A DNA stretch of 64,000 nucleotides from Shigella phage B2, in sequence record OM858838. One strand, written 5' to 3'. Position numbers and translations under genes: made by a program. This document shows positions 3,929 through 45,299 of this stretch, in pieces. Position 1 is the stretch's first letter. The number at the start of each line of letters is the position of its first letter. The notes under the pieces were generated by a model. That model ran no database searches and had not been told where the DNA came from. It worked only from the letters and a program-made list of their open reading frames with translations.

Positions 3929-5371
3929 ATGGCTAAGACTCTTGAGCAAGATGAAAAGAAAGTACACGTTGCTGAAATCGTTCGTCACGGCGAAAAACTG
4001 ATTGTGCCGGAAGGCATGTCTCTGAGCGATGTTATCGACCTCGCTAAACGTCGCATGAAGTTCGAAGAAGAAGAAGTTCTGGTACGTCGTACCTATAACG
4101 TATTCCCATGGGATGGTGCTCATGCTCTGATGCTGGCACTGACCGAACGTTATGGCTGGGCTGCTGCTGAAGCAACTCCTGGTTTCTTCGGCTCCAATCC
4201 TCCGCAAATGCTGGATGTGCAGGTCGGCTATGGCAAAACCAAAAAAGTTCCATGGGGACGTTTCTCTCTGCCACAGGTAGATGGTTTTGTTCAGTGTTCT
4301 GCACAGAAGAAAGATGGTCGTATCAGCTTCGAACTGGTCGGTAAAGTCCTGCGTAAAGACGAAAAGACTATCGAACTGCTGTTTGATACCGTTGAGCAAA
4401 CTCTGCGTACCAACTCCATTTACATGGGTCAGGCTATCAAAATCCGTTTCCGCGATAACGATGGCGACCTGCTGGAAATGCCGGAACCAGAATTCATGGA
4501 CCTGCGTGGTATCAGCCGTGATTCTCTGGTTTATTCTGACGATGTTCAGAACCTGATTGAAACCAACCTGTTTACGCCGATTGAGCGTGTTGCTGACTGT
4601 ATCGCTAACGATATGCCGGTTAAACGTGGCGTTCTGCTGGGTGGACCATACGGTACTGGTAAAACTATGGCTGCAACTGTTGCTGCTGCTCTGGCTACCA
4701 ACGTGGGTGTTACCTACGTATACGTACCGCGTTCTGATGAACTGTCTGATGCAATTCAGTTTGCTAAGCAGTACAGCGATAAAGCCTGCGTAATCTTCTG
4801 TGAAGATATCGACCGTGCCGTATCCGGTGAACGTAGCGTGAAGATGGACGATATCCTGAACATTCTGGATGGTATCGACACCAAAACTTCTCGCATCATC
4901 ACCGTTCTGACCACCAACCATCTGGAAAACATCAACCCAGCAATGCTGCGTCCGGGCCGTCTGGATGCAATCATCGATGTTACTGCGCCTGATGCGAAAG
5001 CTGTTGAAAAACTGGTTCGCCTGTATGGTCGTGACACCATCGCTGCTGATGCAGACCTGACTCTGGTCGGTGAAGCTCTGGCTGGTACTATTCCTGCGGT
5101 AATCGCGGAAGTTGTTAAGCGTGCGAAACTGCACCAGCTTCAGTATCAAGAAGCAGGTACTCTGATTGAAGAAATCAGCGGTCAAGCTCTGCTGGATTCC
5201 GCTCTGACTATTCAGGCACAGCGTAAGCTGCTGGAAGAACAGTCCAAGCCGAAAGTTAAAGAACCAACCTTCAACGAAACTATCGCTGCTGCTGTTGCTC
5301 CGGCAATTGCTGAAGCTGTAGGTAAAGTTGCTGGTCAGGTTTCTGAACTGCACGAACGTATCGTCGGCTAA
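3929..5371 (+). CDS. classic-clade AAA+ ATPase, codon-optimised (highly expressed)
   Basis: Walker A GGPYGTGKT, Walker B VIFCEDID, second region of homology with RPGRLD; strong host-like optimal codon usage (CTG, CGT, GGT, AAA) distinct from neighbours. Confidence 0.85.
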   Translation: MAKTLEQDEKKVHVAEIVRHGEKLIVPEGMSLSDVIDLAKRRMKFEEEEVLVRRTYNVFPWDGAHALMLALTERYGWAAAEATPGFFGSNPPQMLDVQVGYGKTKKVPWGRFSLPQVDGFVQCSAQKKDGRISFELVGKVLRKDEKTIELLFDTVEQTLRTNSIYMGQAIKIRFRDNDGDLLEMPEPEFMDLRGISRDSLVYSDDVQNLIETNLFTPIERVADCIANDMPVKRGVLLGGPYGTGKTMAATVAAALATNVGVTYVYVPRSDELSDAIQFAKQYSDKACVIFCEDIDRAVSGERSVKMDDILNILDGIDTKTSRIITVLTTNHLENINPAMLRPGRLDAIIDVTAPDAKAVEKLVRLYGRDTIAADADLTLVGEALAGTIPAVIAEVVKRAKLHQLQYQEAGTLIEEISGQALLDSALTIQAQRKLLEEQSKPKVKEPTFNETIAAAVAPAIAEAVGKVAGQVSELHERIVG

Positions 5372-42665: not shown

Positions 42666-43166
42666 ATGAAACGTACTATCTCTAATAATGGTTTAAAATT
42701 TACTGCTGCTTGGGAACAACTGAAAACCAAAGCATATAGAGCTACTAGTCAGGAAGAGTATCTCACTATTGGATATGGGCATTATGGTCCTGATGTAAAA
42801 CCAGGAGATACAATTACTCCAGATGGTGCTTTAAATCTTTTAAACAGTGATATGGCTAAAGCTACACGTAAAGCTAATGAACTGGTCCATCCTAACTTTA
42901 ACCAAGCTCAATTCGATGCAATCGTTGACCTATGTTTTAACGTGGGTACAGGTGTTATTGAAAAAGATAATGTCTTAGGTGACTTTGATGATGCTGTCAG
43001 ATTAGGTAACGTCAAAGAAGCTAGACGTATTATGTCTCAATTTATCTATCAGAATAAGAAACCATTACTTGGATTAAAAAGACGTACTGAAGGACGTCTT
43101 GCACTCTTTGATGGTAAGACTTGGTCTGAAGCAGAAAGAATTGGGAGAGAGGTGAAGTCGTTATGA
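42666..43166 (+). CDS. endolysin, GH24 lysozyme-like muramidase
   Basis: AWEQLKTKAYRATSQEEYLTIGYGHYG matches the E…D…T catalytic region of phage lysozymes. Confidence 0.85.
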   Translation: MKRTISNNGLKFTAAWEQLKTKAYRATSQEEYLTIGYGHYGPDVKPGDTITPDGALNLLNSDMAKATRKANELVHPNFNQAQFDAIVDLCFNVGTGVIEKDNVLGDFDDAVRLGNVKEARRIMSQFIYQNKKPLLGLKRRTEGRLALFDGKTWSEAERIGREVKSL

Positions 43167-43708
43167 CAGATAGAACCAAGTTAATATTACTTGGTTTAGT
43201 TGCTGTAGCTCTCATTTCGGTGGGAGCTTTTTTTGCTTGGTACATTACCAGCAATAAATATGAAAAGGACTTAGCAACTTTAACCAGTGAATATAATACT
43301 CAACTCAAAAAGATATCTGACAAAGCTTCAGCAGATATGGCTGATGAAATCAAAAGACATAATGCTACTCAAGCTCAGTTAGATGCTCTTGATGCTAAAC
43401 ATACTAAAGAGAATCTTGAACATGAAAAAGCTAATGCTCAGCTTAAACTTGATATTGCTACTGGCAATCGTAAGCTGCAATTCGCCAACGCAGGTCTTGC
43501 AACCTGTAAGCTCTCCAAAGATACAGGAGACAAAGCCAGCAGCTTGGGCAATGGAACCGAAGTCGAACTCTCTCCAACTGTTCAACAAGACCTTCTCGAT
43601 ATCAGAAATGGAATCCAATCAGACCAAGATAAATTAGACTATCTTCAGAATTACATAAGAGTAAGAGGATGGGATGATGGCAGTACTATCCAGCAAACAG
43701 AGAAATAA
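43163..43708 (+). CDS. Rz-like i-spanin
   Basis: N-terminal TM helix LILLGLVAVALISVGAFFAWYI then coiled-coil periplasmic domain; follows endolysin. Confidence 0.7.
   Translation: MTDRTKLILLGLVAVALISVGAFFAWYITSNKYEKDLATLTSEYNTQLKKISDKASADMADEIKRHNATQAQLDALDAKHTKENLEHEKANAQLKLDIATGNRKLQFANAGLATCKLSKDTGDKASSLGNGTEVELSPTVQQDLLDIRNGIQSDQDKLDYLQNYIRVRGWDDGSTIQQTEK
43422..43637 (+). CDS. Rz1-like o-spanin embedded in Rz in the +1 frame
   Basis: signal peptide with lipobox IVSC, Pro-rich mature part; entirely nested in Rz. Confidence 0.6.
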   Translation: MKKLMLSLNLILLLAIVSCNSPTQVLQPVSSPKIQETKPAAWAMEPKSNSLQLFNKTFSISEMESNQTKIN

Positions 43709-43877
43709 ACTTCCTGATTCTGCATTTGCAGGACCAGATAGAAGTTATCCAGTACATGATAAAGCTCATGCTGCTAACGCTAAAGCCAGAGCAACTCAAC
43801 AATATGAAGCAGGTAATCTAAGTAAATCAGCCAGAGATAAGATTCGTGCCAAAGCCAATAAAGTGTTGTATGGCTAA
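43674..43877 (+). CDS. small basic hypothetical protein
   Basis: GAGG SD, ORF overlapping Rz 3' end. Confidence 0.4.
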   Translation: MMAVLSSKQRNKLPDSAFAGPDRSYPVHDKAHAANAKARATQQYEAGNLSKSARDKIRAKANKVLYG

Positions 43878-43918
43878 TTAGTTATGTATACTCATACTGC
43901 CAACTTATAGGAGGTCTT

Positions 43919-44218
43919 ATGGCATACTCAGATGTTGATGCAATTCTTGCTGATGGTAAACAAGCTGTAGCTGTTAAACATGGTGGTGGTTTAGTTGTTG
44001 TAGGTGAACTTGGTGCTCAAGTACTTGCAGCTAAAGACGTAAGTGAATTACCAGATGGTGTAGGTGGTACTGCTCCAGGTGCTGCTACTACTACTACTGC
44101 TGGTGTAGTTAAACAATCAACTACTCAAGCAGCTTCAGTAGCTACTGATGTAGCAGGTGTAGTTACTGATTTGAATGCTTTAATTACTAAGCTAAAAGCT
44201 GCTGGTATTATGGCTTAA
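43919..44218 (+). CDS. small Gly/Ala/Thr/Val-rich protein sharing N-terminal module with next gene
   Basis: GGAGG SD; N-terminus MAYSDVDAILADGK…GGG…LAAKDVSELP; biased codon usage. Confidence 0.55.
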   Translation: MAYSDVDAILADGKQAVAVKHGGGLVVVGELGAQVLAAKDVSELPDGVGGTAPGAATTTTAGVVKQSTTQAASVATDVAGVVTDLNALITKLKAAGIMA

Positions 44219-44238
44219 TTCTTACGAAAGAATATACA

Positions 44239-44262
44239 AAGCTCCTTCGGGAGCTTTTTTTG
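44239..44262 (+). terminator. intrinsic terminator with cTTCGg tetraloop
   Basis: 8-bp stem aaagctcc/ggagcttt, TTCG loop, T-run. Confidence 0.6.
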
Positions 44263-44295
44263 TATACTGTCATTGCCTACTTATAAGGAGGGCAT

Positions 44296-44931
44296 ATGGC
44301 TTATTCAGATTTGGATGATGTATTTGAAGATGGTAAAGATATCATTCCAAAACAAGGTGGAGGAATTGCTGTAATTAGTCCTTTTGGAGAAGAAATACTT
44401 TCTGCTAAAGATGCTACAGAACTTCCATTTGTTGTTACTCCTCCAGAGACACCTGAAGATATCTTCTTATTAGATATCTTTAACTGGACTGGTAATTTAT
44501 CTATTCCTACAAGTGCTACTACATTCACTAACTTCTTTGCATTATCAGGTATAACCAAGAATCCTATTGGTACTGCTGGGTTGACTATTACTTCTGGTAA
44601 TCTCCTATTCCCATTGAGAACCAAACATAGTCAAGTAATCTTCTCCATTCGTGTTTCTGGAAGTGTTGCTGGTGCAGCAGGTACTGATAGAGAATGGAAG
44701 ATTCAAACCAGAAGACCTAATGGAGATATTGTTGGTTCTGATTTTGCTGTTAAAACTGTAGCTGATACAGATATCAGTAACCGTGATACTACTTTATCAA
44801 GTTATGCACTAGCCAATACTGACCCATTCTTTACTCAGGGTATTCAGTTAGGTCTATTTAATAACTCGGGTCAAACTATCACTCTTACTTCAGTATCTGT
44901 TCGAATACTACAAACAATTAATCCAAGCTAA
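44296..44931 (+). CDS. protein with same N-terminal module (MAYSDLDDVFEDGK…) and divergent C-terminal domain
   Basis: GGAGG SD; paralogous first ~45 residues to 43919-44218 product. Confidence 0.55.
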   Translation: MAYSDLDDVFEDGKDIIPKQGGGIAVISPFGEEILSAKDATELPFVVTPPETPEDIFLLDIFNWTGNLSIPTSATTFTNFFALSGITKNPIGTAGLTITSGNLLFPLRTKHSQVIFSIRVSGSVAGAAGTDREWKIQTRRPNGDIVGSDFAVKTVADTDISNRDTTLSSYALANTDPFFTQGIQLGLFNNSGQTITLTSVSVRILQTINPS

Positions 44932-44971
44932 ATATAAGGCCCTACGGGGCCTTTTCTTATTGAGGTAATAC

Positions 44972-45292
44972 ATGAGAGTCAAAACATATCTAAGACGCCA
45001 GAGAGAAGGCTCTATACCTGTTAAATCAAGTAATGATGATATAGGTATACAAGAGTATCCTGACGTACTCTTAACCATGTACATCAACACACTTGAAAAT
45101 GGAGATTCTCCGAGAGCCTTACGTGAAGGTATTAAGGAAATTATGAAACGAGTTCAATCTCCTAGAGTTAAGTCCATCCTCCAAGATATCAAACGAGCTA
45201 CATCACCAGTAGGCAGATTACATTTTTACTATGGTGCTTTGGAACGTGACTTAGAAGAGATTAGAGACATATCAAAAGAAAGCCCCCAATAA
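44972..45292 (+). CDS. hypothetical protein
   Basis: ORF ending in bidirectional terminator. Confidence 0.5.
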   Translation: MRVKTYLRRQREGSIPVKSSNDDIGIQEYPDVLLTMYINTLENGDSPRALREGIKEIMKRVQSPRVKSILQDIKRATSPVGRLHFYYGALERDLEEIRDISKESPQ

Positions 45293-45299
45293 GGGGGCT
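45281..45299. terminator. bidirectional hairpin between convergent genes
   Basis: stem agccccc/gggggct with AATAA loop. Confidence 0.5.

Follow-up and report, generated by a model that had tools for sequence, protein, structure and literature searches.

Two adjacent genes of Shigella phage B2 (record OM858838) encode proteins that begin with one homologous module of about 45 residues and continue into unrelated distal domains. The first gene, ORF A, encodes the decoration protein gp45 of the B2 capsid, while the second, ORF B, is gp46 by gene order. The reading that we favour, with moderate confidence, is that the two products are old paralogues that form two capsid-surface fibres on one type of anchor, such that ORF B would be a second head fibre, probably of low copy number, in which a gp45-type anchor carries a TNF-like knob. 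The features on which this reading is built are listed below, with positions given for the window, that is, the whole 64-kb stretch of DNA that was analysed.

43919..44218, + strand: ORF A, B2 gp45, 99 aa; capsid decoration or head-fibre protein, 100% identical to chain J of PDB 9D82
43919..44059, + strand: N-module of ORF A (aa 1-47), putative capsid anchor, common to ORF B
44057..44215, + strand: Gly/Ala/Thr-rich linker and phi29 gp8.5-type distal tip cassette of ORF A (aa 47-99), PF11133 positions 233-277
44296..44931, + strand: ORF B, B2 gp46 by gene order, 211 aa; uncharacterised, with full-length homologues in Ithacavirus, Triduovirus and Gamaleyavirus
44296..44436, + strand: N-module of ORF B (aa 1-47), a paralogue of that in gp45
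44458..44928, + strand: predicted TNF/C1q-like jelly-roll knob domain of ORF B (aa 55-211)

Two neighbouring genes share an N-terminal module

The earlier note, made from the letters of this DNA, had proposed that the two products share an N-terminus and then carry unrelated C-termini, and the comparison of the two proteins bears this out. When both products were aligned by BLASTP, residues 1-45 of ORF A and 1-44 of ORF B were identical at 22/45 positions (49%; 69% positives, one gap, E=1e-14), and no significant alignment was obtained beyond the N-module. The pair has a Smith-Waterman score of 118; comparisons after shuffling (5000 in all) averaged 22 (sd 4.3) and never exceeded 53, giving z=22.6. 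Columns G24, G32, A38, E43 and P45 are invariant in the N-module alignment across both paralogue types, and the module is kept at the protein level in Ithacavirus, Triduovirus and Gamaleyavirus. No third copy emerged when all six frames of the window were searched with phmmer, each module retrieving just its partner (E about 1e-10).

An N-terminal resemblance of this length (45 aa) that runs on into the 5' untranslated region could be fortuitous, or could merely reflect a shared translation-initiation region ahead of an ORF B that is no real gene. We consider this explanation highly improbable given the strength of the alignment between the two N-termini, the invariant Gly, Ala, Glu and Pro columns maintained in the protein across three phage genera, and the recovery of ORF B at full length in more than 20 phages at 55-97% identity, together with its confident predicted fold. 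On these sequence comparisons, a chance origin of the N-module resemblance is excluded.

The nearest records to this region by megablast are the Salmonella phages UTK0001 and FSL SP-058 (Ithacavirus, Schitoviridae, Humphriesvirinae). Upstream of ORF A on the same strand lie, in order, two holin genes, the endolysin gene, the spanin gene and a 67-aa ORF, confirming the proposed position of both genes beside the lysis cassette, while ORF B is followed by a 106-aa ORF and then by convergent tail-fibre genes. Elsewhere in the window, full-length matches to B2 chains were obtained for the major capsid protein (9D82_A, 879 bits) and for the 410-aa tailspike partner ("Gp49" of 9D83/9D84, 907 bits), and the portal, at 706 aa, and the tail proteins of 83 and 44 kDa agree with what has been published for B2 (PMC11654681).

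The two small flanking ORFs were also inspected. The 67-aa ORF (43674-43877, + strand; B2 gp44 by order) belongs to PHROG 16160, shows a weak, below-cut-off match to DUF6582, and is kept in SP-058 and SP-076. Its first 35 nt are also the last 35 nt of the spanin gene (43163-43708), read in a different frame. The 106-aa ORF (44972-45292, + strand) matches Pfam DUF7740 (33.1 bits, cut-off 28), and its last codons are overlapped by a GC-rich hairpin (45281-45299) that receives a terminator score on both strands and precedes the convergent 777-aa tail-fibre gene.

ORF A is the decoration protein gp45 and carries a phi29-type tip

The ORF A product and chain J of PDB 9D82 ("B2 Dec Gp45") have the same sequence at all 99 residues (100% identity), and the identity of this product as a capsid decoration protein is experimentally established. 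gp45 has been described as a 99-aa, 9-kDa homotrimeric decoration protein of the T=9 B2 capsid, modelled in a 3.4-Å icosahedral map and detected in B2 virions by mass spectrometry, no homologous structure having been found by its authors (Subramanian et al., Sci Adv 2024, PMC11654681). In 9D82 the gp45 and MCP chains number nine each, which makes three gp45 trimers per asymmetric unit; in the gp45 chains 44-47 of the 99 residues are modelled. The decoration site in B2 is placed at 'quasi-sixfold' axes (PMC11654681), as against quasi-3-fold for N4 gp17 at the homologous site (PMC11768535), and the former term may be imprecise.

The C-terminus of ORF A had been taken earlier for a short tail rich in Gly, Ala and Thr, a description that proved incomplete. 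The Pfam model of the phi29 head fibre, PF11133, is matched at its C-terminal end (positions 233-277 of 277) by residues 55-99, with 40.4 bits where the cut-off is 24.6, and the same stretch matches PDB 6QVK and 3QC7 (E about 1e-7) as well as crAss001 gp21 in 7QOF (E=0.0028). Nothing in ORF A aligns with PF11133 model positions 1-232; by these profile matches, ORF A shares the phi29 tip domain without being a full member of the family. No PF11133 match was found for ORF B in Pfam. The tip cassette is itself widely dispersed: phages and prophages of enterobacteria and of Bacillus carry it, at 60-85% identity, after a large variety of unrelated N-termini.

A second type of ORF A allele is present among the relatives. 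In UTK0001 the gene (L002 4311-4697) encodes 128 aa comprising the same N-module followed by a different, longer helical C-terminus (…TKAEFDALVAEFNKLLTDVTALRTTVATLLTNVKSAGQVS), the gene at the ORF A position in SP-076 (L005 1501-1887) has the same length, and the metagenomic protein P0049 (122 aa) is also of this long-C-terminus type.

ORF B joins the module to a predicted TNF-like knob

Homology of ORF B to gp45 is restricted to residues 1-47, which match 9D82_J with E=1.3e-7 in a search of the PDB. A short Pro-rich linker of about 8 residues leads from this module to the distal domain, which is predicted to form a ten-strand jelly roll like those of TNF, C1q and BclA. The best structural match is the tail-needle knob of Sf6 and HS1, with 13-15% identity to the Sf6 knob. 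Searches of Pfam and NCBIfam returned no match for ORF B (no Pfam hit at E<=1, PF16532 included), and the protein falls in PHROG 17779, of unknown function. Several ORF B homologues are labelled as proteases, a label that we rejected, as no peptidase family was matched in Pfam, NCBIfam or PHROGs and the predicted fold is TNF-like; it appears to be a propagated annotation.

The distribution of this domain is informative as to its likely architecture. At 45-60% identity, domains of the ORF B type are found after collagen triple-helix repeats (PF01391), which implies by analogy that the ORF B knob would likewise be a trimeric fibre tip. The domain also occurs in a small protein of the epsilon15-like phage PAT1, encoded between the portal gene and an annotated endoprotease that is followed by unnamed ORFs, and as gene 18.8 of the T7-like phage CLB_P1. 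In G7C-like Gamaleyaviruses, the N-module and the ORF B domain together form a lone gene beside the tailspikes, and a metagenomic N4-like contig has, in the same slot, the N-module fused to an Sf6-type knob (P0094; PF16532, 112.8 bits; 43% identical to the Sf6 gp9 knob). Judged from sequence, the N-module occurs with at least four distal domains, namely the phi29-type tip, the longer coiled-coil tip, the TNF-like knob and the Sf6-type knob.

Unannotated stretches corresponding to the last ~80 knob residues, at about 60% identity, were found in rV5-like and T4-like genomes of about 150 kb (records H51-H56, H60 and H62). These look like gene remnants or unrecognised small ORFs.

The structural match to the Sf6 and HS1 needle knob raises the question of whether ORF B is instead a tail-associated knob, located at the tail tip or in the adaptor or tailspike complex, with its N-module binding a tail protein rather than the capsid. 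The gene does adjoin tailspike and adaptor genes in Gamaleyavirus and in locus L012, and some homologue records are annotated as 'tail needle knob'. We nevertheless regard a tail location as quite unlikely: the sole experimental location of the module is the capsid surface (gp45 in 9D82), and ORF B has no counterpart to the coiled-coil needle of Sf6 gp9, with only the ~8 residues noted above between module and knob. Moreover, the B2 tail reconstruction models the portal, adaptor, tube and tailspike N-termini without gp46 (PMC11654681), and in PAT1 the gene for the domain is flanked by the portal gene and the head-module genes that come after it.

The N-module as the probable capsid-binding part of gp45

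Several lines of evidence point to the N-module, rather than the C-terminal cassette, as the part of gp45 that binds the capsid. The number of gp45 residues ordered in the icosahedral map, 44-47 of 99, argues for this assignment, as does the failure of the B2 authors to find a structural homologue even though the C-terminal cassette has one in 3QC7. The assignment is further consistent with the behaviour of phi29 gp8.5 and crAss001 gp21, which bind the capsid by their N-termini and have a flexible phi29-like part. In phi29 gp8.5 the capsid is bound by an N-terminal base and the C-terminal fibrous part is weakly ordered (PMC6542822), while in crAss001, whose capsid is also T=9, the 97-aa gp21 is ordered at residues 1-38, which sit in the hexon pocket, and its phi29-like residues 42-97 are too flexible to be modelled (PMC10172136).

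Taxonomic range points the same way, since the cassette is promiscuous over different capsids whereas the N-module is confined to N4-like enterobacterial phages. An N-module profile searched against 1.84 billion representatives gave 15 matches, of which about 8 were real clusters, and an N-module profile recovered short fragments only from an index of 5.8 billion proteins. Finally, the 128-aa allele of UTK0001 retains the module and exchanges the C-terminus, an instance of the C-terminal swapping between related phages for which the earlier note had suggested looking. The wider proposal in that note, that decoration or receptor-binding proteins combine a common anchor with exchanged distal domains, is upheld for ORF A by cryo-EM and virion mass spectrometry, while for ORF B we still infer it. 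Neither the absence of both proteins from virions nor a lack of conservation of the module is observed, gp45 being present in virions and the module in three genera.

Structure prediction for the module itself was of moderate confidence (AlphaFold pLDDT 58-76). In a Foldseek search of the PDB with the ORF B model, the best 50 matches listed were all of knob type and 9D82 was not among them; the ORF A model itself reached only E=2e-5.

Each gene has its own expression signals

Four signals on the + strand surround the two genes.

43885..43915, + strand: putative promoter-like element before ORF A, conserved; comprises TATACT, which resembles a -10 box, a leader and a strong Shine-Dalgarno sequence
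44238..44257, + strand: intrinsic terminator between the genes; 8-bp stem, UUCG loop, T-run, -14.0 kcal/mol; kept in relatives
44261..44291, + strand: conserved motif before ORF B, repeating the promoter-like and ribosome-binding element found before ORF A
44936..44953, + strand: intrinsic terminator 3' of ORF B; 7-bp stem, UACG loop, -13.5 kcal/mol

The similarity between the two genes extends upstream of their coding sequences, as the region about 31-40 nt 5' of both start codons is 73% identical between ORF A and ORF B. The motif TGTATACT-N5-TGCC-N-ACTTATA(A)GGAGG has two sites in the window, those before ORF A and ORF B, against a chance expectation of 0, and it is kept before the orthologues of both genes in SP-058, UTK0001, SP-076 and the more distant TR2. 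A strict consensus scan found no sigma-70 promoter 5' of either gene, and the promoter assignment is therefore made from the conserved TATACT-containing motif by itself. The tetraloop terminator described earlier between the two genes is present as a stem-loop (44238-44257) with a TTCG loop and a T-run. Within the spanin gene, not far from the 5' end of the coding sequence, is another terminator-like hairpin (43207-43228, + strand; 9-bp stem, TTCG loop, T-run), which may be a chance occurrence or an internal attenuator of the lysis and late transcript.

Both genes are lost in relatives

Both ORF A and ORF B are accessory, because each is lost in viable or assembled relatives. In UTK0002 (L014 4311-4637, corresponding to window positions 43919-45292), the first 16 codons of ORF A are fused in frame to about residue 15 of the 106-aa DUF7740 gene, such that the deletion takes the rest of ORF A together with the whole of ORF B; this phage is cultured and plaque-forming. 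Two independent lesions are found in the single genome L013 (Logan ERR10225282 contig, 69.5 kb, 4001-4370; protein P0087), in which both terminators are still present. The first yields a 57-aa ORF composed of the N-terminus of the upstream 67-aa gene and the last 27 codons of ORF A, and the second is an internal deletion of ORF B that leaves the start codon region and the last ~35 codons. In EC1-UPM and ECBP1, the ORF B type is reduced to C-terminal remnants. Dispensability of this kind is as expected, being usual for decoration proteins and head fibres, and the head fibres of phi29 are likewise non-essential.

A second head fibre or a non-virion protein

If ORF B is a head fibre, residues 1-47 of both proteins would be a small unit for attachment to the T=9 capsid of the N4 type. 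In gp45, the abundant protein, a flexible linker rich in Gly, Ala and Thr would join this anchor to a trimeric tip of the phi29 gp8.5 type, while in gp46 a short Pro-rich linker would join the same anchor to a trimeric TNF/C1q-like knob that is probably a glycan- or surface-binding head. With a promoter-like element, a strong ribosome-binding site and a terminator for each gene, different expression levels would be possible, and ORF B may take a minority of the gp45 sites and give the head a second binding specificity. We infer both the presence of ORF B on the virion and the ligand of its knob.

We favour this reading because the N-module is homologous to the solved capsid protein gp45 (E=1e-14, z=22.6), and we also count in its favour the third variant, in which the N-module and a true Sf6-type knob occupy the same genomic position in another N4-like phage. 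Two observations on B2 itself count against it: gp46 is absent from the eight proteins listed by virion mass spectrometry, which did pick up 12-copy proteins, the adaptor among them, and no density was assigned to gp46 in the B2 maps (PMC11654681).

The missing gp46 in the mass-spectrometry list is in keeping with an ORF B product that is expressed late and is not a stable virion component, acting instead as a soluble trimeric TNF-like lectin or as an assembly or competition factor. Such a protein might, for example, bind procapsids transiently, control the loading of gp45, or attach to debris or receptors once set free by lysis, and the module would then serve as a transient capsid-binding or oligomerisation unit. 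The position of the gene at the end of the lysis cassette with its own expression signals would suit this role, as would the frequent loss or decay of ORF B. A further consideration comes from Gamaleyaviruses such as Bp4, which encode both an ORF B-type protein and the Ig-like decoration protein gp17. N4 gp17 fills every quasi-3-fold site (PMC11768535) and Moo19 gp17 binds the same sites as B2 gp45 (PMC11654681), so that there is no obvious free capsid site for the module in Gamaleyaviruses, where the decoration sites are already filled by gp17. We nonetheless judge a non-virion role to be somewhat unlikely, as the module is homologous to a proven capsid-bound protein, the homologous knobs found elsewhere on collagen-like stalks or tail needles are structural fibre tips, and no enzymatic or regulatory family was matched by ORF B. 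No virion proteomics on ORF B homologues was found in the literature on SP-058, SP-076, TR2, the G7C-like phages or Ithacavirus.

The second-head-fibre reading can be extended, tentatively and with some doubt as to the whole, to a scheme in which the 45-residue module is a portable capsid-display tag for T=9 N4-type heads that has been reused for interchangeable distal domains. Virions of the B2 type would then be mosaic, with a minority of sites bearing a lectin-like knob, an adhesin on the head through which the phage would first, and reversibly, touch host or mucosal glycans; the ratio of the fibres would be set by the two independent promoter-terminator units.

Comparison with known systems

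ORF A was already known, and the system is a further example of the modular head fibres and decoration proteins recognised in phi29 and crAss001. The B2 paper (PMC11654681) does not mention the paralogy of gp46 and gp45, the gp46 fold or an anchor family with exchangeable tips, the 'gp46' named there being that of Moo19 only, and we found no other literature describing the paralogy, the fold or the anchor family. Relative to B2 gp45 (PDB 9D82, PMC11654681), with which ORF A is the same protein, ORF B has the first ~45 residues and replaces the helical tip with a 157-residue TNF-like knob.

The closest parallel to ORF A in organisation is PhiCrAss001 gp21, a 97-aa protein with a short ordered anchor (1-38) and a flexible C-terminal domain homologous to the phi29 gp8.5 tip (PMC10172136). 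PhiCrAss001 also resembles the proposed arrangement in that its T=9 capsid bears a gp21 trimer and a gp29 dimer, two fibres unlike in their distal domains; its fibres depart from that arrangement in that their anchors are unrelated, their oligomeric states are not the same and two kinds of hexon pocket are used, whereas a single homologous anchor is found here (PMC10172136). No sequence similarity was found between the PhiCrAss001 anchors and the B2 N-module. With phi29 gp8.5 (PF11133; PDB 3QC7, 6QVK), the correspondence is between ORF A residues 47-99 and gp8.5 residues 229-279 at the distal end of the trimeric fibre, but ORF A has neither the double beta-barrel base (1-110) nor the helix-turn-helix supercoil stem, and comprises 99 as against 280 aa.

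ORF B shares the predicted jelly-roll fold of the Sf6-type tail needle knob (gp9 C-terminal domain, PF16532, PDB 3RWN), from which it is set apart by the lack of a PF16532 match, by the 13-15% identity, and by its attachment to a capsid-decoration anchor instead of a coiled-coil needle. Its fold is similarly like that of TNF/C1q-like fibre heads (PRD1 P5, BclA, C1q), yet it matches no Pfam or NCBIfam model. In having a constant particle-binding N-terminus and swapped distal modules, the pair also recalls the modular tailspikes and tail fibres of FSL SP-058 and SP-076 (PMC3728262), with the difference that the anchor here is that of a head decoration protein and two paralogues coexist in one genome.

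Implications

Should ORF B be located on the head, two kinds of fibre would compete for one anchor site on Ithacavirus capsids, providing a natural, tunable display of binding domains on a T=9 capsid. A head-mounted knob would also be a candidate host-range or adsorption factor outside the tail in phages now used against Salmonella and Shigella, and the 45-residue anchor, being so short, could be of use as a tag in phage display or engineering.

Database labels are affected as well, namely "protease" and "tail needle knob" on ORF B homologues and "head fiber" where the name comes from the 45-residue tip cassette only. A Vequintavirus "head fiber protein" of phage 4MG was considered, with its neighbour, as an analogous gene pair and was rejected, since the two have no shared N-terminus and only the C-terminal cassette is common with ORF A. 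The 4MG protein (L011 3309-3608) and many Vequintavirinae 'head fiber protein' records have just a 35-45-residue C-terminal cassette in common with phi29 gp8.5. Their genes lie among tail-fibre genes and the products carry a tail-fibre-like W-x-DITGKP-x-TF-x-P motif; the 'head' label on these Vequintavirinae proteins may be wrong.
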